A DNA stretch of 64,000 bases from Bacilli bacterium (lineage in GTDB: Bacteria; Bacillota_I; Bacilli_A; RFN20; CAG-826), in assembly GCA_017502465.1 (NCBI GenBank), contig JAFVUY010000050.1:12256-76255 (forward strand). The letters are read 5' to 3'. Under the pieces are notes generated by a model. The model searched no databases. It was not told where the DNA came from and saw only the letters and a list, made by a program, of their open reading frames with translations. The position numbers and the translations under genes were made by a program. Positions 9,498 to 37,904 of this stretch are shown one piece after another; position 1 is the first letter of the stretch; each line of letters opens with the position of its first letter.

Positions 9498-12400
9498 TGA
9501 AAAAAAGACTATTTGTTTTTGCCACTGCATCGATTGTTTGTGGCATTATCTTTGCTAGTGTCATTCAAGATAACACCCAAATTAGAAATGCTTTTGCGAG
9601 CAACTCTCACACCAGTAGTTGTAATTGGAACCATTACAACGAACTCCTTCCTACATATAACGAAAACGGAGTTAAAGAATATTGGATTTGTTGTGACCAT
9701 CCACATTTAGGACCATCTTTAAGTGCTCCTACAAGTGGAAAAGTCACTAATAGAAGTGCGAGTAGCGACTTTAGAAAAACTATTCAACCTGCGGATATTA
9801 GATATTTAAAACCTTATAATGAACCATTAGATTTTTCTGATGGTTATTTGCCTTCTATCTTAACCCATAATAGCAACGTTAAATCTGCGACAGTTACTGA
9901 CGAAGGTGAATATAAATTTGTTGTGAAAAACGGTAGTTTTGGCGTTTTCCTTAGCAAATATTATTTAGATCAGGTCTTTTCTGATCCAAGTGTTGTTGCG
10001 ATTAACTTTGAAGCAAAAGGTGACTTCGCCACAAACAACTTCAGAAGAAAATATTATGATCCCCTTAAAAATGCTTGGACAAATAGAACTTACGAGTCCA
10101 ATCACTCTGCATATGGTATTACCCAAAATTGGAAAACATTCACATATACACGTGAATATTATGATTTATATCAAGAAGGTGAAACCTTCCTTTGTGGAGG
10201 AAACGTTAGTGAAAATAACTATATTCTTATCGACAATATTACTCCAGTTAAAGTTCATTTAGATCCTTATCGTTTTGAAAATGGCGGTATTAGAGATACA
10301 TGGAATTTCTACACCCCAGGCCACTCTGATAGCGGATATATTTATTACGAAGCTCCTGAAAGAATTTTCCGCGCACACGATGATAATAAAGGAGTTCTTA
10401 CTGAAGCGGGTTATGACTATGACCACAAATCAGAAGGTAGACGCTCCATTAGAATTGGTAAAAATAATGGTTATGTTGCCTTTTATTTAAGAAATAATAT
10501 TCAAACCATTTTAGGAGATGACGATATTATCTTATTTGATTTTATGTCTTCAATAGGCATTAACTCCAACTTAACGGCTAAAAATCTCACTGACGGCATG
10601 AACCAAATCGGTTTTGCTCCTAATGGAGTTCATCCTGGAAATCAATGGGTGACATATGCTTTCACAAAGAGCAATATTACCTCTGATGGCAGATTCCTTA
10701 TTGTTCAAGGTAGTACCAGTGGATATTACTATTTTGATAATATCCGTATTGTTAAAAATAATGGATATGTCAATCAAGGTAATATTCATCTTGAAAAAGG
10801 TGAAGGATATTCACTTACCACTTCACACAATATCGATAAAGTTGAATACATCGCGATTAACGATATTGAAGCAAGTCCAAGCGACACAAATATTTCTGTT
10901 TCTGGAAGAACAGTTAATTTATCAAGCGCCTTGATGGAAGAAGGCAAAATCACAAAATTCTTAATTGTTTATGAACATAACTACCAGTTATATTCCAATT
11001 ACACTTTCTTCGAACCAAATGTTTTCACAAAACAAAGCGATGTTAGTCTTTCTATTGCCTATGGTGATAGTGGATACCACACATTATCTGGTTATTCAAA
11101 CATTTATCGAATGACATGTAATGGAAAAGAAGTTCCGTTTGAAGTCAGTGGGGCAAATTATTTAATTCCTAAAGCCGCGCTTATTGAACTTCTTGAAACA
11201 TCTAATAATAAAAAAGTAAGCGGTAAAATCAATTTAGATTTATATTCATTAACCGCGAAATATAGAATTCCATTTAACATTACAGTTTCTAACAACGTTG
11301 ATGTTAAACCAATTCCAAATTATCAAGGTGAAGGTATTAAAACTCACGCTTATTCCTTCTCATCTGAATTAGGTGATCAAAATACTTACGCACCTTATTT
11401 AAACACAACAAAAATTGCCGAATATAACAATGTCGGTTATGAAATTATTTACGAACAAAGAGTTCACGTCCTCACCGACCACTCTAAATCTAAAAACGCA
11501 ATTAATTTCTTGTTAGATAACGCTCAAAGATTGGGCAAAAAAGTTATCTTATCAGAAGATGCCTTTGGTTTATTCTCCAAACAAACTCAATCCCTTATTG
11601 GAAACGATGTTATGAACGGCTCTTCGGTTTATTCTCACTTTAATAGTGAAGCTGAACTTGATTCCTTTGTTGAATCAAGACTCAAATTATATATTGATCA
11701 TCCAGCTTGCTATGGGGTCTCTATTGGTGATGAACAATCTTATGATCAAATTGTCAATGGCTTTAAAGATATCATGCAATCACTTCACCGTGTTTTAACT
11801 AAACTCGGAAGAACTGATTTCTATCTTGGTAATAACTTACATCCATTCTCCGCGAGCGATGAAACTCTTGCCGGCGCAAATTATAAGACAGCATCTGATG
11901 CCGAAAATTACCACGAACTTAATTATCTTACTTACTTAAACGCTTACTTAAACGCAAGCGGTAATGACTATATTCAGTTCGACGCTTATCCATTCGCAGA
12001 TAATAAAAAAGGCGGAAACTATGGTAAACACTCTGATCCTGATATCACAACAGCAAATGGCATTACATATTTCTATATGGCGAACTTATTATTAGTCGCT
12101 AACTTTGCAAAAGAAAACAATCTTGAACTTAAGATGGTTGGTCAATCTACCACATATTACGGCACCCGTATTATTGATAGAAAAGATATGGCGTGGATTT
12201 ATAACATGATGCTTGGTATGGGTGTCAAACATATTTCTAGCTTCGTCTATTGCAATAGAGGTACTTCGGGCGTTTCAAAAGAAGGATGGCTTGACGAATC
12301 TTCTCCACTTAATGGTAACGGAGAAAGAAATGATCATTATTATCTTTTCCAATCCACCCTTATGGAAATTCAACAATTCTCAAAATTCATCTCAGCGTTT

Positions 12401-31819: not shown

Positions 31820-33913
31820 GTGTATGTTATGGGAAAGTTAAATTTTGTTTTAACAAAACTTATATTTTGGCCAATCATCGCATTAACCGCTGTCTTATTA
31901 AGTAGTTTTGAATTTGCCCCAGGTGATTTTTACAAAGGTTATTCTGATCCTGGTTTTTATATTATGGCGGGCGTTATTTTCTTTTTAATTATTATTTATT
32001 TTGTGTTGGAACATAGATTAAATAAGTTTAAAGTCCATCCTGTCTATTTCCCAATTTGTTTAACTTTACTTGTTTTAATGATTACAGCAATCTGGATGCA
32101 AGGAAGCGAAACTTTCACCAATAGCGAAACAAATTATACAATCGTAGTTTCTATAACTGTTACTCAAAAAATAAAATTTAGTGTGGTTATTGCTTTGTTT
32201 TTGACAAATATCTACATGATTTTATTCAGTTTTGGACGCAAACAATTTAGGGTTAAGCAAATATTCTGGTTTGTTAGAATCTATATTGCATTTGTTGTAT
32301 TTGCAATTATTTATTCTATCTCTACTGAATTTACTACATTAAAAGGAATCTTTGTCTCAGAAGGAACAGATTTAGTAGGGTTGAGTTCATTCTTCCATAA
32401 CGAAAACCTCTTTGCGATGTTTATTCTATATGCAATATTTGGTTGCTTCATTTTAAATTTTTATCACACTAGACCTCATAATTATATTTTAATCGCGGGC
32501 CTATTTTTCTATATGACATTAACCACATGCGCGGCTACATTCTTTGTTGGATTATGCGCTGTTATTATTTATATCATCTTTGACTTAATTCGAAACTTTA
32601 AAAAACATTGGGTGTTAACTTTAATCTCTGCTGGTATTTCAACAGCCATTATTGTTGGCGCTATTATTTTCTTTTCAACAGCGTATTCTAATGAAATTTC
32701 TTGGGTTAAAAACTTATTCACATATATTCAAAAAGAAATCTTTTCTAAAGACTTTAATACATTCACTGGTAGAACACGTATTTGGAAAGATATTTTTGAT
32801 AATTTAATTAATACCAATCTTGTTAATTTATTAATAGGTAGAGGTTATGGAACATCTTCCATGTTTTTAAAGGGATTAGGGTTAATGCATAGCAGTGGCT
32901 CTTTTGAAAGAGCTATTATTTCCGCTCACAATGGCTTAATTAATATCTTACTTAATAGCGGATTAATTGGTTTAGGTTTATATGCAATTCTTATCCTTTT
33001 AGTGGTATTTACCTGTATCTATTTACTTTTTAAGAAAAAAGTTAATCTTTCTATAACATTTGGGTTAATTATTTGCGGAGTTTTAGCGCACTCATTATTG
33101 GAAAGCGTTGCTTTCTATTCTACATCTATGGTTAATATGCTAGTCACAATTATGTTTATGTGTCCATTATTTAACTGTGCGAGAGGGGTCTTTAAACCTA
33201 AACTTGTTAATCAAGTTAAAAATGGTGATTACGCATATAACAAGATGCAATATCGCAAGTTACGTAGATTCATTAGCGTTGTTATTATTTCTTTAATTAT
33301 TCCTTGCGTTACTTTATTAACATCTTTGATGACCTATCAACATAAAGAGATGTTGAATACAGTTTTAACTATCTTAGTCGTGTTAGCGATTTCTTTAATC
33401 TTTGTTCCTCAATTAATCACAATGTTTTATAAAGATTCTAGTAGAAAGAGATTTATCTTTAGAACTATCTTCTATCCAATATTAACCACTGTTTTAGTTA
33501 GCGTATTAAGTGGTCTATATGTCCGATTCCTCTATAACAAAATAAATATTAAACCATATTTAGCAACTTTAATTATTTTTGTATCTATATTGTTGGTGTT
33601 AACATTCATTTTCACTTTAGTGAAAAAAGATAGATTTGTTCACTATTTGAGCGATACATTCTTACATAGTTTGTGCTTGGTGAAGATTGCTCTTCCATTA
33701 ACTTTAGTTGTTGGTGTCTTAGGAAATGTTATTTATGATATGTTATTTGTGCCTACACCTCTGACTGTCTTGGAAATTAATACTATTCCATTTATTTTGT
33801 ATTTCGTATTATTTGCAACTATTCCATCTAAAGAAAAATATTATTATACAAATTACTTTAATGAATTATCGCTTTATAACTTTAAAAGAACTACTCTAAA
33901 ATATAAAATTTAA
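31820..33913 (+). CDS. O-antigen ligase/Wzy_C-like membrane protein with extra C-terminal TM region
   Basis: TGRTRIW...LLIGRGYG...SAHNGLINILLNSGLIG signature and many TM helices. Confidence 0.72.
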   Translation: MYVMGKLNFVLTKLIFWPIIALTAVLLSSFEFAPGDFYKGYSDPGFYIMAGVIFFLIIIYFVLEHRLNKFKVHPVYFPICLTLLVLMITAIWMQGSETFTNSETNYTIVVSITVTQKIKFSVVIALFLTNIYMILFSFGRKQFRVKQIFWFVRIYIAFVVFAIIYSISTEFTTLKGIFVSEGTDLVGLSSFFHNENLFAMFILYAIFGCFILNFYHTRPHNYILIAGLFFYMTLTTCAATFFVGLCAVIIYIIFDLIRNFKKHWVLTLISAGISTAIIVGAIIFFSTAYSNEISWVKNLFTYIQKEIFSKDFNTFTGRTRIWKDIFDNLINTNLVNLLIGRGYGTSSMFLKGLGLMHSSGSFERAIISAHNGLINILLNSGLIGLGLYAILILLVVFTCIYLLFKKKVNLSITFGLIICGVLAHSLLESVAFYSTSMVNMLVTIMFMCPLFNCARGVFKPKLVNQVKNGDYAYNKMQYRKLRRFISVVIISLIIPCVTLLTSLMTYQHKEMLNTVLTILVVLAISLIFVPQLITMFYKDSSRKRFIFRTIFYPILTTVLVSVLSGLYVRFLYNKINIKPYLATLIIFVSILLVLTFIFTLVKKDRFVHYLSDTFLHSLCLVKIALPLTLVVGVLGNVIYDMLFVPTPLTVLEINTIPFILYFVLFATIPSKEKYYYTNYFNELSLYNFKRTTLKYKI

Positions 33914-33939: not shown

Positions 33940-33966
33940 GTCCCTATTTATATTAGGGGCTTTTTT
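33940..33966 (+). terminator. Intrinsic terminator
   Basis: GTCCCTA-N7-TAGGGGC followed by T6. Confidence 0.75.
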
Positions 33967-34033
33967 AATTCTAAGAAAAAGTAAGGTTCTATATTTTGGT
34001 AATAATAGAAAGCCCTGATGGAAGGAGGCAAAA

Positions 34034-34096
34034 ATGGAAAATCAAAAGGATTTTTCTTATCCTCTATGTGGTTAGCCAAAGACACGAAATACATAA
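34034..34096 (+). pseudogene. comFA 5' remnant A (internally deleted) ending in the junction motif
   Basis: RBS AAGGAGG then MENQKDFSYPLCG*PKTRNT*. This resembles the ComFA N-terminus (F.CPICG) joined directly to the CGSPKTR.T* tail of remnant B. Confidence 0.6.
34067..34096 (+). repeat. Junction (attL-like) motif, copy 1
   Basis: TGTGGTTAGCCAAAGACACGAAATACATAA, 24/30 identical to 35125-35154. Confidence 0.75.
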
Positions 34097-34111
34097 CAAA
34101 AGGAGGAGAAT

Positions 34112-34414
34112 ATGAATAAATATAGAAGACACTTTAGAATATATTTTAAAAATAATCACCCTGCATATATTGTTGATGAGGAGGGGAATACCTATGTATT
34201 TCATAGAGTTACCCATTCGAAAACTTCTGGTGGTAGAAAAAATTGGACAAAAAATAATAACCCTATAAAAGGGGATAACAGACCAATGAGAATTGTGAAG
34301 AAACAAGAAAAAGATTCAAAAGCTCGATTTAGCTACTTCGAAATTGAACTTAAAAATGGCGTTGATATATCCTACCCAGAAATAAAAGTTATAAAAGAAA
34401 AAAAGAAGAAATAA
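34112..34414 (+). CDS. Small basic hypothetical protein, possibly PemK/MazF-like fold
   Basis: Strong RBS AAAGGAGG. HPAYIV...YVFHRVTHS is reminiscent of the RP-hydrophobic...TS pattern of PemK/MazF RNases. The fold call is inference. Confidence 0.7.
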   Translation: MNKYRRHFRIYFKNNHPAYIVDEEGNTYVFHRVTHSKTSGGRKNWTKNNNPIKGDNRPMRIVKKQEKDSKARFSYFEIELKNGVDISYPEIKVIKEKKKK

Positions 34415-34435
34415 AAAACAAGGATAAACCTTGTT
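34413..34435 (-). terminator. Intrinsic terminator closing the minus-strand RNA
   Basis: Minus strand reads AACAAGG-TTTAT-CCTTGTT-TTTT and overlaps the stop codon of the convergent ORF. Confidence 0.7.
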
Positions 34436-34745
34436 AGTTGTTTTGGACTCCATTGACACATTATGTTTCCCTCTAGTGTTCTAGGCGGGTGTCATCACTG
34501 CTTTAGTTGAGTTTATTAAGCAGCTGGTGTTCTCGTGGTCATTAATCACAAGTTGCCTTGTTCGCCATGTCTGGTGCCGGTCCTTACGCATACAAGTCCT
34601 AACTCTGCAACCGGTAATATCGATTGATATCAGTGAGGCTATTACCATTGAATCTAAGATTCATAAATAAGCGATCTAAACATAGATTTATTTAACAATC
34701 CCGACTAGGTAATCAACGTCCCTATGATCGCTTGCCATACGGCTA
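34413..34745 (-). ncRNA. Candidate ~330-nt structured non-coding RNA of unrecognised class
   Basis: About 41% GC by hand count (34441-34740), a chain of inverted repeats, and a promoter and terminator on the minus strand. No ORF with an RBS. Confidence 0.6.
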
Positions 34746-34751
34746 TCTATT

Positions 34752-34780
34752 ATTAAAACAAAACAAAAGAATTAATGCAA
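34752..34780 (-). promoter_or_regulatory. Sigma-A-type promoter P1 for the long RNA
   Basis: Minus strand TTGCAT, 17 bp, TTTAAT with TGn extended -10. Confidence 0.6.
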
Positions 34781-34796
34781 TATAAAGTCTATTAAA

Positions 34797-34847
34797 AAGA
34801 AAAAATGATTCACCAGACCAACAATGGATCTCACCTGCGAATCACCG
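34797..34847 (-). ncRNA. Candidate ~50-nt hairpin sRNA
   Basis: GGUGAUUCGC...AGAUC-N7-GGUCU...GUGAAUCAUU followed by a U-tail. Several G-U pairs form only on the minus strand. Confidence 0.5.
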
Positions 34848-34852
34848 CATAT

Positions 34853-34881
34853 ATTAAAACAAAATAAAGGAGGCAATGCAA
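34853..34881 (-). promoter_or_regulatory. Promoter P2, a duplicate of P1
   Basis: 34852-34885 is 29/34 identical to 34751-34784, with TTGCAT, 17 bp, TGn-TTTAAT conserved. Confidence 0.6.
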
Positions 34882-34882
34882 T

Positions 34883-35154
34883 ATAGAAACTTATAAATGC
34901 CCAGTTTGTGGCAACACAGATATTCATTTAATTGGTATGTTGAACGGTAAACCTTATAGTCGTAGATGTATCTCTTTTAAAGGTGAAGAAGTAGAACGCA
35001 AACCATCGTATCCTAAAAAGCACCTATTCACTTGGAATATGAGTTATCACCAGAGCAGAAAGAATTATCTGACAAGTTAGTGGAAAACTATAAAAAAGGA
35101 ATAGATAGTTTGGTTTATGCAGTATGCGGGTCGCCAAAAACACGAATAACATAA
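34883..35154 (+). pseudogene. comFA 5' remnant B (start lost, frameshifted, truncated at Walker A)
   Basis: Translates as CPVCGNTD...PKK/PIHLEY...LVYAVCGS-PKTRIT*, about 68/79 aa identical to ComFA residues 8-86. ATA sits where ATG is expected, and one base is missing in the A-run at 35015-35019. Confidence 0.9.
35125..35154 (+). repeat. Junction (attL-like) motif, copy 2
   Basis: TGCGGGTCGCCAAAAACACGAATAACATAA. Similarity to comFA breaks right after GGnTC. Confidence 0.75.
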
Positions 35155-35172
35155 TAGAAAGGAATAACTTTT

Positions 35173-36165
35173 ATGGAAAAAGAATTAAACGAAATTATAA
35201 CAATCATCCAGTCACATAAGGATAAAGCATATCGAAAAATTAATGAAGAATTAGTATTGATGTATTTTGAAATTGGCAAATACTTATCCATGAAGATTAA
35301 AGCAGAAAAATGGGGTTCGAAAACCATTGAATCGATTTCAAAAAATGTTATGAAAGTGTATCCAAATTTAAAAGGTTTTAACAGAGCAGGATTATATAGG
35401 ATGGTACAGTTTTATGAAGAATATGGAGACAATATAATTGTCTCAACACTGTCGAGACAAATTAGTTGGAGCAATAATATTCTAATTTTATCAAGTACAA
35501 AATCAATTGAAGAAAAAGAATTTTATTTAAGACTTTGTATTAAACACAATTACTCATATAGAGAACTAAATAGACAAATATCTAGTGGGTATTATGAAAG
35601 ATATTTATTGTCAGGCACGGACGCTTTAGAAAGTTTGACACCTGCTGTAGACGAGGATGATATTCCAAAATCGAAAATCTTAGACAATTATTCATTGGAG
35701 TTTTTAGATTTACCAAAAACATATTCTGAAAAAGATTTAAGAAAGTCCATAGTCTCAAATTTAAAAGACTTCATTCTAGAAATCGGTAATGATTTTTCCT
35801 TTATCGGAGAAGAGTACAGAATCCAAGTTGGAGTGCATGATTTTTATATTGATTTATTGTTTTACAACAGAACATATTCTTGTCTGGTCGCGTTTGAATT
35901 GAAAATAGGCGAATTTAAACCAGAATACATTTCAAAGATGAGTTTTTATTTGGAGTCATTAAATAGACAAGAAAAGAAGAATAACGAAAATCAAAGCGTA
36001 GGTATTATTCTATGCACTTCAAAAGATAAAACAGTCGTTGAGTATTCAGTGGCACAGAACAATTCAAATATAGCAATAAGTACATACGAGACAAAATTAA
36101 TAAATAAGAAATTGCTAGAAAACAAAATTAAAGAAATAAGGGAGATTCTTAATGTCGACAAATAA
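35173..36165 (+). CDS. YhcG/DUF1016 family PD-(D/E)XK nuclease-domain protein
   Basis: N-terminal YFEIG...WG...ISWS and C-terminal FILEIG.DF.F...IDLLFYNR...FELK...F.PEY..KM.FY. Confidence 0.92.
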   Translation: MEKELNEIITIIQSHKDKAYRKINEELVLMYFEIGKYLSMKIKAEKWGSKTIESISKNVMKVYPNLKGFNRAGLYRMVQFYEEYGDNIIVSTLSRQISWSNNILILSSTKSIEEKEFYLRLCIKHNYSYRELNRQISSGYYERYLLSGTDALESLTPAVDEDDIPKSKILDNYSLEFLDLPKTYSEKDLRKSIVSNLKDFILEIGNDFSFIGEEYRIQVGVHDFYIDLLFYNRTYSCLVAFELKIGEFKPEYISKMSFYLESLNRQEKKNNENQSVGIILCTSKDKTVVEYSVAQNNSNIAISTYETKLINKKLLENKIKEIREILNVDK

Positions 36166-37303
36166 TTTTGTTTGCCCAATATGTGGAAACACTGACATAT
36201 ATTCAATCGGTTACTTAAATGGCAAGCCATATTGCCGTAGATGTATCTCTTTTCGTGGTGAAGAAGTGGAACATAAACCTTCTTGCCCAAAGAAAGCTCC
36301 AATTCACTTAGAGTATGGGCTATCCACAGAACAGAAAGAATTGTCAGAAAAATTAGTGGAAAACTATAAGAAAGGCATAGATAGTTTAGTTTATGCGGTG
36401 TGTGGTTCTGGAAAAACCGAAATAGTTTTATCTTTGATAAGTCTAGTGGTTTCGTGCGGCGGGAATGTTGGTTTTGTGATTCCTAGAAGGGATGTTGTTA
36501 TAGAAATTCAAGAAAGGTTACAATCTATCTTTAAGGAAAATTTAGTTATTGGTGTTTATGGTAGCCATAGCGAAGAAAAAGAAGGAGATATAATTTGTCT
36601 CACTAGCCATCAGCTATATAGATACAAAAACTATTTTGATTTATTAATTATCGATGAAATAGACGCTTTCCCATTTAAAGGGAACGATGTTCTTGAATCA
36701 ATGTTTAAAAGTTCATTGAGAGGTCATTTTATTAAAATGAGCGCGACTCCATCAAATGAGGATATTGATTATTTCAAAAAAGAAGGAAGAGATATTTTAA
36801 AATTATTTAAACGATATCATGGAGATTATCTCCCGGTTCCTATAGTCAAAAAAAGAAATAATTTTTTCGCATTTTTTGAATTATTTAGATTACTCAAAAA
36901 GTATAAAAAGCAAAACAAACCAGTTTTTATTTTTTGTCCAACAATAAAGCTTGCTGAAAAGATATATGACATTACGAAATTATTTTTTAGTAGTGTAAAA
37001 TGCGTTCATTCGAAAAAAGAGGATAGAGCACAAACAATTTCATCATTTAAAAAGGGAGAATTTAAATTTTTAATTACTACATCTGTCTTAGAACGAGGGG
37101 TTACCGTTAAAGATTTGCAAGTCATTGTTATGTATAGTGATCACCAGCTATATGACGAATATGTTTTAATTCAGATTGCTGGAAGGGTTGGAAGAAAAAT
37201 AGGTGCGACAAAAGGAGATGTGATATTTATTTGTGAAGAAGAAAACCAACAAATTACTAACTGCATTAATAAAATCAAAACCGCAAACGAATCATTGCGT
37301 TAA
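36152..37303 (+). CDS. comFA: ComFA competence SF2 helicase/ATPase
   Basis: Zn ribbon CxxC...CxxC, AVCGSGKTE, IPRRDV, DEIDAFP, SATP, TTSVLERGVT, QIAGRVGR. Confidence 0.93.
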   Translation: MSTNNFVCPICGNTDIYSIGYLNGKPYCRRCISFRGEEVEHKPSCPKKAPIHLEYGLSTEQKELSEKLVENYKKGIDSLVYAVCGSGKTEIVLSLISLVVSCGGNVGFVIPRRDVVIEIQERLQSIFKENLVIGVYGSHSEEKEGDIICLTSHQLYRYKNYFDLLIIDEIDAFPFKGNDVLESMFKSSLRGHFIKMSATPSNEDIDYFKKEGRDILKLFKRYHGDYLPVPIVKKRNNFFAFFELFRLLKKYKKQNKPVFIFCPTIKLAEKIYDITKLFFSSVKCVHSKKEDRAQTISSFKKGEFKFLITTSVLERGVTVKDLQVIVMYSDHQLYDEYVLIQIAGRVGRKIGATKGDVIFICEEENQQITNCINKIKTANESLR

Positions 37304-37904
37304 ATGTTTTAAAGAAATAGAACCAAATAGTCTTTTAAACCTTGCAAAAAGAGAAAATATTTTGTGTAATTCTTGTTTGAATGAAAGGAAAACTCATTTT
37401 CAAAAATTTAGAATAGATGGAATAAAAGCCTATTCAATTTATGATTATGATGAATATATCCAAGGTGTCATTTATACATTTAAAGTATGTGGGGACTATG
37501 AACTTCATAAATTGTTCTTATTTCCCTTTGAAAAAGAAATATCTTTGTTTTTTAAAGGATATAAAATTGTTCCAATTCCTTCATTTAAAGGTGATGACAT
37601 TAAGCGAGGTTTCAATCACGTTTTCGCTATTTTTAAAAGATTAGATCTAGAAATTCTAGATATATTAGAAAAGACTAAAGACATTAAACAAGTAGATGTT
37701 TCAGGCGAAAAAAGAAAAGAAATATATAAACATTTGAAGGTTAATAAGTTAGAGTTGGTGAATTCCCAAAAAATACTTATTGTGGATGATATAGTTACTA
37801 CTGGTTCGACTCTAAAAGCAGCGATTAAATTAATAAAAGAAGGCAAACCTAAATCTATTAAGATTTTGGTTATCGCTAAAACTATAAATATTAAACAAAA
37901 TTAA
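37233..37904 (+). CDS. comFC: ComFC/ComF family protein
   Basis: CxxC...CxxC, RGFNH, LIVDDIVTTGSTL. Lies directly after comFA. Confidence 0.9.
   Translation: MKKKTNKLLTALIKSKPQTNHCVKCFKEIEPNSLLNLAKRENILCNSCLNERKTHFQKFRIDGIKAYSIYDYDEYIQGVIYTFKVCGDYELHKLFLFPFEKEISLFFKGYKIVPIPSFKGDDIKRGFNHVFAIFKRLDLEILDILEKTKDIKQVDVSGEKRKEIYKHLKVNKLELVNSQKILIVDDIVTTGSTLKAAIKLIKEGKPKSIKILVIAKTINIKQN

Follow-up and report, generated by a model that had tools for sequence, protein, structure and literature searches.

The 64,000-nucleotide (nt) stretch of a Bacilli bacterium genome analysed here (the window; positions 12,256 to 76,255 of contig JAFVUY010000050.1, assembly GCA_017502465.1) carries, at the beginning of the competence helicase gene comFA, what is probably a hot spot of recombination, where small, apparently promoter-less gene cassettes lie in tandem. 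The repeat unit of this array is composed of a comFA 5' segment, a short tail holding mutated Walker A codons, a stop and a ribosome-binding site (RBS), and a cargo open reading frame (ORF), and the last unit runs into the intact gene. An earlier reading made from the letters of the window alone (the sequence-only reading) gave the order as a short comFA 5' remnant (remnant A), a first cargo, a second remnant (remnant B), a YhcG nuclease gene and intact comFA, and all of these parts lie where it had placed them.

The array opens on the plus strand with remnant A (34034..34075), which reads MENQKDFSYPLCG* (an asterisk marks a stop) and represents 13 codons of a comFA start, from an ATG at 34034 to the zinc-finger CxxCG, joined to the first tail. 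It resembles the MENxxSFxCPxCG starts (ATGGAAAAT...TGCCCAATNTGTGG) of the intact comFA genes in G266, L105 and G401 (G and L handles denote genomes and loci of our collection), and judged by this resemblance the first small ORF is a genuine comFA remnant. An exact pattern match locates the first junction tail at 34076..34111 (plus strand), where mutated Walker A codons, the stop of the remnant frame and the RBS of the first cargo follow one another; the tail proper spans 34076-34096 (CCAAAGACACGAAATACATAA, read PKTRNT*) and is followed by a Shine-Dalgarno-like GGAGG and by the cargo ATG at 34112, 15 nt past the stop. This first cargo, ORF100 (34112..34414, plus strand), encodes a small basic all-beta protein of an unnamed family and is accompanied by a conserved, G+C-richer non-coding stretch (34415..34851). 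Remnant B (34883..35133, plus strand) covers comFA codons 1 to ~86 with an ATA at the start position, aligns by tblastn with 77-87% amino acid (aa) identity and one frameshift and ends ...YAVCGSPKTRIT*, and together with its tail (34883-35154, 272 nt) is 75-80% identical to comFA at 36173-36424. Its start is of the type found in the intact comFA of G030, G194, L100 and G316. The second tail (35134..35172, plus strand, pattern match; tail proper 35134-35154) again supplies mutated Walker A codons, a stop and an RBS, here for the second cargo, a YhcG/DUF1016 PD-(D/E)XK nuclease (35173..36165, plus strand; Pfam, PHROG, PADLOC) whose ATG at 35173 lies 18 nt past the stop. The spacing of 15-18 nt between tail and cargo ATG, with an RBS in between, had been correctly read from the letters.

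The end of the YhcG gene overlaps the ATG of intact comFA (36152-37303), which contains DEAD, ResIII and Helicase_C domains (Pfam) and falls into two parts, an imported 5' end (36152..36421, plus strand) comprising the start, the zinc finger and the sequence to Walker A (GSGKT, residues 85-89), and a resident, lineage-specific body (36422..37303, plus strand). The hallmarks of ComFA are present: the protein begins with a four-cysteine zinc finger and has a helicase core of DEAD type that includes Walker A, and comFC, here a phosphoribosyltransferase-type gene that overlaps the end of comFA (37233..37904, plus strand), lies directly downstream. A ComFA scan of NCBIfam gave matches to other helicase families only, all under their cut-offs. 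The genes secA and prfB follow comFC, and the order comFA-comFC-secA is also found in relatives.

Loci from relatives were gathered with three queries (ComFA, ORF100 and the 88-aa ComFA N-terminus); the relatives are small-genome (~1-1.5 Mb) uncultured Bacilli, represented by cattle and goat rumen metagenome-assembled genomes (MAGs) that NCBI titles Bacilli, Bacillales or Erysipelotrichaceae. Two collections, of genome contigs and of metagenome contigs, were also scanned with a 22-nt junction pattern, and comFA arrays were found in 8 of 10 genome-contig stretches and 6 of 12 metagenome-contig stretches (7 junctions). After removal of redundancy, MAGs of rumen Bacilli and metagenomes together yielded 35 cassette-bearing comFA loci, the genus codes including at least g1, g8, g9, g22, g24, g31 and g35. 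As anticipated for relatives, the number of comFA 5' fragments varies between loci (0 to 4), the fragments end at CGS plus the tail, and each is then followed by different cargo. Two or more matches to the 88-aa N-terminus were present in 19/401 family genomes, with a maximum of 6 in G194; the true number must be higher, since a locus with a short remnant or a single cassette (such as G239, G316, G348 and G401) scores as one match. The units are 0.4-1.3 kb in length with a repeat of ~260 nt of coding 5' end. Every cargo gene is read in the direction of comFA and has no more than an RBS ahead of it, a terminator following ORF100 in the window.

The larger arrays illustrate how the same parts are reshuffled. 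Written in comFA-strand order, G370 carries YhcG fragment - YhcG - remnant - c3 - remnant - ORF100 - remnant - c5b - comFA; G194 carries ORF100 fragment - fragment - remnant - c5 - remnant - c5b - remnant - c4 - comFA; and G410 carries c4 - remnant - c5 - remnant - c4 - comFA, where c3, c4, c5 and c5b are further small cargo classes. The G239 locus is composed of ORF100, the non-coding stretch of the window and then directly the intact comFA, and by its sequence shows the predicted earlier state of the window. Short remnants like remnant A are also seen in L083/L104, L100 and L111. In the window, L081, L078 and L141 the displaced fragments retain homology to intact comFA and decay with distance from it, broken remnants being distal and open ones lying beside comFA. 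This gradient is what insertion at the intact gene would produce if each new arrival moved the older starts upstream, and fits the proposal that cassettes enter one after another; the comparison of remnants shows older 5' ends to have been displaced upstream and then to have decayed. The architecture recurs in independent cattle rumen, goat rumen and Joint Genome Institute (JGI) metagenome assemblies. A search of sequencing runs for the array stretch of the window gave 20 entries from 10 studies, all at contig level. Three of these runs, from 3 studies, contain the stretch in full in their Logan contigs, although any of them may be the source sample, and one 8.4-kb Logan contig spans 33500-35587 with zero differences. 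The other genomes give the stronger support that the arrangement is real.

Two further observations concern individual remnants and starts. In G370 (L078 9230-9928) one remnant, its tail degraded, continues in frame into ORF100, and the two form a chimeric ORF of 232 aa. In the (M/I)ETYKCPVCG class of comFA starts an ATA (window 34883-34885; G030/L034, L081, L100, L079) stands where G239 (L084 1900-1902) and L111 have ATG, and the full-length comFA of G030 was missed by ORF calling because it has no other in-frame ATG, GTG or TTG. From these alignments, either the intact comFA of G030, G194, L100 and G316 would be started, weakly, from ATA, or translation would not begin there.

Comparison of intact genes shows that comFA itself has been rebuilt. 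Among 40 distinct intact ComFA proteins, nine (G030, G194, G266, G348, L100, L105, G316, L102 and G370) are 83-91% identical to that of the window over residues 1-88 and 44-54% identical over residues 95-383, the corresponding values for the other 31 being 41-67% and 42-55%. At the nucleotide level, identity between the nine genomes and the window falls from 73-96% (nt 236-265) to 36-56% (nt 266-295), the drop being located at about relative nt 266, just past the Walker A codons, and this step places the break at these codons; the cassette-free relative G013 has no such step. These alignments show the intact comFA to be a mosaic with its break at the Walker A codons, and agree with the suggestion of the sequence-only reading that an intact gene is regenerated at each insertion, with an imported 5' end.

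The cassettes are likewise more alike than the genomes that carry them. The non-coding stretch of the window is 97.6% identical to that of L084 (G239) and 98.4% to that of L111, ORF100 is 91% identical across genomes and YhcG is ~91.5% identical in nucleotides to the copies in L099, L102 and L118, against a host background in those genomes of 73-79% for secA and 65-72% for the comFA body. In the same way c5 is 94-97% identical in amino acids in G401, G417, G194, G410, G476 and G467, the C-terminal parts of ComFA being 49-53% identical to that of G401. As cargo and 5' ends are more alike than their hosts, cassettes and comFA 5' ends move horizontally with comFA regenerated each time, and on these identities exchange of cassettes and the comFA 5' segment between genera is shown.

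The joint between remnant and cargo is the most constant part of the array. The consensus junction reads ...GTNTGYGGNTCN / CCAAARACACGAAAT.CATAR / (Y)AGAAAGGAG.. / ATG, that is tail, RBS and cargo ATG, and this constant segment of ~35 nt precedes six cargo classes (YhcG, ORF100, c3, c4, c5 and c5b), cargo-specific sequence starting exactly at the RBS. The sequence-only reading described one foreign tail on both remnants; the same pattern does occur twice, but part of the tail is native to comFA, since the opening 15 nt are the Walker A codons (GGAAAAAC-CGAAAT) with GG changed to CC and one A inserted. The change from GG to CC and the extra A destroy the P-loop and bring a stop into frame. In the 2.74-Mb assembly the 21-nt tail pattern occurs exactly twice, both times in the window array (reversed control, 0), and one more site elsewhere in the assembly matches it with 2 mismatches. 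Units are bounded by direct repeats, in that a comFA 5' segment and tail stand ahead of the cargo, the strict junction pattern being found before 27 of 56 cargo starts. The remaining starts mostly have degraded copies of the junction when inspected by eye, and about 8/56 have none, chiefly the first cargo of an array, which then sits directly behind the terminator of the upstream gene. Folding of the junction as single-stranded DNA on both strands (6 folds) gave z scores of -0.3 to -1.4, with no significant hairpin and no attC-like fold. A Xer/dif-like site was considered and dropped, a comparison by eye of the tail with a Bacillus dif sequence giving a 7-mer match only.

The best characterised cargo is the nuclease. 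YhcG matches Pfam YhcG_C (1e-51, 175 bits) and DUF1016_N (4e-38, 131 bits), both above cut-offs, as well as the PADLOC phage-defence candidate PDC-S02 (E 2.1e-112) and PHROG 22762. For ORF100 there is no match in Pfam (the MazF/PemK model PF02452 included), in PHROG, in NCBIfam or in PADLOC, its profile found no PDB sequence under E 0.5, and its family of 523 homologues contains none with a name and none with a Pfam domain. An AlphaFold2 model of ORF100 has a predicted local distance difference test (pLDDT) of 78, and the Foldseek matches listed against PDB are all MazF/PemK-type endoribonuclease toxins, these being weak (template modelling score 0.46-0.57, E 0.02-0.2, best 0.019). The nearest Atlas cluster with a Pfam family in a protein-language-model search is PemK_toxin (0.88), which we take as a lead only. 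From the structural model, a MazF-like fold is predicted for ORF100. No second small ORF that could be an antitoxin gene lies beside ORF100 in arrays or in solitary loci. No Pfam or PADLOC match was obtained for c3, c4, c5 or c5b. Common descent of the small cargo with ORF100 was considered and not adopted, the hhalign probabilities being 0.8-78%, with only c5 reaching 78%; by eye the small cargo classes and ORF100 have a pattern 'HPxxI/V ... T(S/H)S' in common. Taken from these matches, the cargo looks defence- or toxin-like, comprising a candidate PDC-S02 nuclease and small proteins with a putative MazF-like fold.

The ORF100 family is not confined to comFA. It is present in 42/401 genomes of the order, and 13 of 20 ORF100 loci that were extended have no comFA within ~8 kb. 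Genes of this family are often solitary amid unrelated housekeeping genes (L085-L097; for example L085 8083-8472 and L088 8187-8558), with no comFA fragment or tail nearby.

The non-coding stretch behind ORF100 (34415-34851) is also the leader of the 'ETYKCPVCG' type of comFA start, and at 97.6-98.4% it is more conserved than ORF100 at 91%. A terminator scan finds a hairpin at 34417..34435 that is terminator-like on both strands, with a long T run after it on the minus strand, and a minus-strand reading of the stretch ends at this good terminator. A match to the Rfam family cow-rumen-1 (RF02946) lies at 34556..34617 on the minus strand with 47.7 bits (E 3.7e-9), below the gathering score of 53.4, and the homologous site in L084 is also sub-threshold (48.2 bits). 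A structured RNA in 34405-34775 was considered and no firm non-coding RNA call was made, the fold z scores being only -1.5 and -1.25 and the Rfam match sub-threshold; the stretch is taken as a candidate RNA or leader. Above-threshold cow-rumen-1 matches occur in 17/141 family genomes, mostly as 3-5 tandem copies with a spacing of ~300-330 nt (for example G194:C4:398629-399320, G260 and G410; L120-L139), the copy in the window being single, weaker and isolated. A full-text literature search found nothing on 'cow-rumen-1'. Within the stretch a 46-nt direct repeat (34751-34796 and 34852-34897, 78% identical) copies the leader and first codons of the remnant-B start, and by its sequence looks like a further vestigial comFA start.

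On the left, the array is limited by an intrinsic terminator (33940..33960, plus strand, terminator scan) that belongs to a gene for a Wzy_C-like membrane protein (31820-33913; ORF and Pfam match). In L034, L078, L084 and L099 the array instead follows rpiB and a conserved terminator region, so that the left flank is not conserved, whereas the right flank (comFC-secA) is.

Turning to the means by which cassettes move, the sequence-only reading found no integrase or transposase in the window, and this absence extends further: the five recombinase families PF00589, PF00239, PF00665, PF01609 and PF01548 have zero matches on the whole contig (C37). A Pfam scan of the 50 window ORFs of >=110 aa gave no recombinase among the 25 commonest of 71 families. 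The expectation that some versions of the array would carry a recombinase failed, none being present in the feature maps of ~35 arrays, which leave no unexplained gaps, or beside 15 junctions from the collection scan; in particular there is no recombinase ORF in the G370 array (L078) between the upstream gene and comFA. Over the whole assembly the five families gave 21, 17, 13, 10 and 4 matches, respectively. Most recombinase and transposase matches of this MAG (G000) are on short contigs, and it comprises 2.74 Mb in 271 contigs with 7.9% contamination, the relatives having ~1-1.5 Mb. Given its size, contamination and short-contig matches the bin may be mixed; the window contig itself is family-core-like with comFA-comFC-secA-prfB synteny. 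The proposal of an integron-like capture site is not borne out, as there is no IntI beside the array and no attC-like fold in the junction.

The linkage between cargo and 5' segments was assessed on a tree of 47 comFA 5' segments (codons 16-84, each segment covering codon <=12 to >=80, duplicates L143, L153 and L118 dropped). Upstream cargo requires 23 changes on this tree against 23.8 in shuffles, that is no linkage, and the segments are likewise unlinked to downstream cargo, which speaks against an att-cargo-comFA 5' end cassette inherited as one unit. The locus of origin requires 14 changes against 17.7 in shuffles (1/300 shuffles). Since segments are linked to locus and not to cargo, exchange and conversion among the repeats is indicated. 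Only the very start of a 5' segment is tied to the preceding cargo, by physical overlap, and this is of three kinds: a YhcG stop overlapping ATGTCG..., '...KKKGKKNG*' overlapping ATGGA(A/T)AA..., and a non-coding stretch running into 'ETYKCPVCG'.

Nor do all boundaries fall at a single codon, as had been supposed; both the zinc finger and Walker A, each a conserved patch, are used for crossovers. The imported part in L099 and G239 already ends close to the start or the zinc finger and not at Walker A. Short remnants, of two start types or more (seen in the window, L083/L104, L100 and L111), join the zinc-finger ...GTNTGYGG to the tail, an 8-nt word that also occurs in the Walker A region (AVCG). 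Fragments of YhcG are joined to the junction at microhomologies. With no recombinase, no fold, no cargo-segment linkage and two crossover patches, recombination through homology or microhomology seems to us more likely than a site-specific system of the integron kind. The assembly has intact comFA and comFC, a DprA match (5e-68) and a ComEC-type match. A phage origin was considered and rejected, a tblastn search of the ComFA N-terminus against 50,697 phage records giving 4 Listeria records only (33-34% identity). The first cassette found nothing among the phage records by blastn, the junction pattern had 0 matches in IMG/VR, and ORF100-family patterns gave 29 candidate stretches there, none of which was confirmed.

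The explanation we favour, at roughly even chances, is that the cassettes spread without an integrase, through recombination that is homologous or of the short-patch kind and that probably follows natural transformation, the comFA 5' repeats being portable homology arms. The two comFA 5' copies that flank every cargo would act as these arms, and the element would have no integrase of its own. The recipient would acquire donor-array DNA, most plausibly through natural transformation, and RecA would recombine it with the resident comFA. In a naive recipient the crossovers would be placed where all comFA genes are conserved, that is at the zinc-finger CxxCG codons and at those of Walker A (both with GTNTGYGG), and would leave either a long remnant or a short start-to-tail remnant, together with an intact gene having an imported 5' end. 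Recipient DNA would need no duplication, and the Walker A mosaic and the short remnants are both predicted. The imported 5' end would ease the next transfer, the constant tail would descend from one founding junction, and the cargo would be translated from the message of the competence operon. We speculate that new cargo is probably acquired through an illegitimate join at the RBS, in a homology-facilitated event for which the comFA 5' segment provides the anchor.

Several points weigh against this explanation. A constant tail before unrelated cargo is exactly the look expected of a recombinase binding site, and under homologous recombination the tail requires a single ancestral junction and replacement of cargo at the RBS, which is speculative. 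The 21 tyrosine- and 17 serine-recombinase matches in the assembly could act in trans. The tree is weak (~210 nt), and gene conversion could have erased an original linkage of cargo and segment. Logan contigs, in a search of contigs only and of little power, gave no sign of a transfer event, an excision product, a circle or a joint at an empty site; the contigs with window sequence have two joints (33579->33834, and 35196->37047 with 1581 other letters between), with 21-nt sides, that look like other organisms. The ComEC-family match is weak (38 bits), and natural transformation is a putative capacity of these uncultured bacteria. All sequences are MAGs or metagenome contigs, and many array genomes come from one genus (g31) and are hence not independent.

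A more far-reaching form of the favoured explanation, which we put forward tentatively and think somewhat doubtful, is that the array is a transformation-borne selfish element. It would use copies of the 5' end of a competence gene as its own arms, rebuild its target on insertion and overwrite the 5' end of the recipient, and would thereby amount to a recombinase-free gene drive that runs on host competence and RecA and delivers defence or toxin genes co-expressed with DNA uptake. If so, its target is carried by every cell capable of DNA uptake, and comFA starts would converge across genera, making the next invasion easier.

The principal rival, a serious one although we consider it unlikely, is the model of the sequence-only reading, in which a site-specific recombinase encoded elsewhere excises units of tail, cargo and 5' end as circles and inserts them at the Walker A codon, much as with integron cassettes or the SCC- and CIME-type elements described below. 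The ~35-nt junction held constant ahead of six unrelated cargo classes is what such an enzyme would leave, the mosaic boundary lies at the same place in nine genomes, and the tail resembles its target (the Walker A codons) as attP resembles attB; the decay gradient also suits serial insertion at an intact site, and many recombinases are present elsewhere in the assembly, none of which could be tied to the site. However, none is found in the 35 arrays or beside the 15 collection-scan junctions, the tail has no copy outside the array in its own genome, and the junction has no significant fold. The 5' segments are moreover unlinked to the cargo of the same putative cassette, right-hand boundaries also fall near the gene start (L099 and G239), and Logan contigs, with little power, hold no circle or empty-site joint.

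A second rival, compatible with either mechanism of movement, concerns what the repeats encode. The comFA 5' copies may have been selected as short ComFA zinc-finger peptides, for example as regulators or partners of the cargo in antitoxin-toxin-like modules, and 14 of 26 remnants do keep an open frame of >=89 codons ending at the tail stop (a count that leaves out two pieces that are intact genes cut by contig ends). The spacing of 15-18 nt from stop through RBS to ATG resembles coupled operons, and cargo with a predicted MazF-like fold has no visible antitoxin. Set against this, both window remnants are broken and 12/26 elsewhere are truncated or frameshifted, remnants of 13 codons are equally good cassette heads, the head is no different in cassettes for YhcG, a protein not of the toxin-antitoxin type, and several arrays begin with a cargo that lacks any remnant. 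We hold this proposal to be improbable.

An old, vertically inherited tandem duplication of the comFA 5' region that never moved, or an artefact of metagenome assembly, would account for segments being more alike within an array than by chance, for the restriction to MAGs and metagenome contigs and for the many arrays in one genus, but is largely refuted and very improbable given cassettes 91-98% identical between genera with secA at 73-79%, a mosaic break inside the intact gene, the same architecture in independent cattle rumen, goat rumen and JGI assemblies, the arrangement of the window in 3 runs of 3 studies, and repeats that at only 75-90% identity are too divergent for k-mer assembly collapse.

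In several rumen genera most comFA starts now have the form of the imported piece, which is the commonest there. Should the integrase-free explanation be true, a few hundred bases of conserved coding sequence suffice for the carriage of genes across genera by transformation, and this would explain the spread of small defence or toxin genes among tiny-genome gut Bacilli with few classical mobile elements. The arrays also offer a testable case of cargo wired into a competence operon, in which the PDC-S02 nuclease and the MazF-like proteins would be expressed on DNA entry. For annotation, it is of note that repeated comFA starts are easily taken for pseudogenes or misassemblies.

A full-text literature search found no description of this comFA cassette arrangement. 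In the portion of PMC12378983 on which we draw, comFA is a known target of mobile DNA in Firmicutes, with prophages in Streptococcus and Bacillus, other elements residing in comM, comK and comGA, and there the prophage insertions in comFA are classed under disruption of competence genes. Mobile DNA in competence genes, as covered by that portion, disrupts its target, whereas the comFA cassettes are tiny inserts and the gene is repaired at every insertion.

By their sequence the comFA arrays are not members of the integrons, of the accretion systems or of the orphan arrays discussed here, and they have traits in common with each. Like integrons, they hold single-gene cassettes in one orientation that are common to several genomes, and these are apparently promoter-less and would be read from upstream; unlike integrons, they have no adjacent IntI and no attC-like fold, and the repeat is a piece of a housekeeping gene. 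Integrase-less kilobase elements are known that accrete at one att site at the 3' end of a gene through a known tyrosine or serine recombinase, namely the cis-mobilizable elements (CIMEs) beside ICEs (integrative and conjugative elements), as well as the pseudo staphylococcal cassette chromosome (SCC) elements at rlmH. The likeness here is that of recombinase-less units placed head to tail, in which one end of the target gene forms part of the repeat and the target is left intact. In comFA arrays, however, a coding 5' end of ~260 nt is repeated, unit length is 0.4-1.3 kb, and neither a recombinase in the arrays nor, among the contigs, a circular form was found.

Also comparable are the minimal mobile elements of Neisseria, cassettes lying between conserved genes that are moved by transformation and flanking homology. 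Both systems are integrase-free exchanges of small cassettes for which transformation and homologous recombination are invoked; the Neisseria elements rely on resident flanking genes and one genus, whereas the comFA cassettes carry their own arms, cross genera and leave tandem remnants. In the orphan or displaced toxin-immunity cassette arrays of the Rhs and CdiA polymorphic toxins, an incoming cassette with a short homology replaces the 3' end of the gene and the old end is left behind as a decaying fragment, with no dedicated recombinase. In those arrays of Rhs and contact-dependent inhibition (CDI) loci, the variable part lies within the protein, at its 3' end; comFA arrays differ in that it is the 5' end that is replaced, by a near-identical copy (83-91%), with the payload a separate ORF, the displaced pieces upstream and the target a competence helicase and not a toxin. 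The likeness is that in both a gene end appears to be replaced by homologous recombination and displaced fragments pile up alongside, and by this analogy the working principle of the comFA arrays would, in principle, be most like that of the Rhs/CDI orphan arrays.

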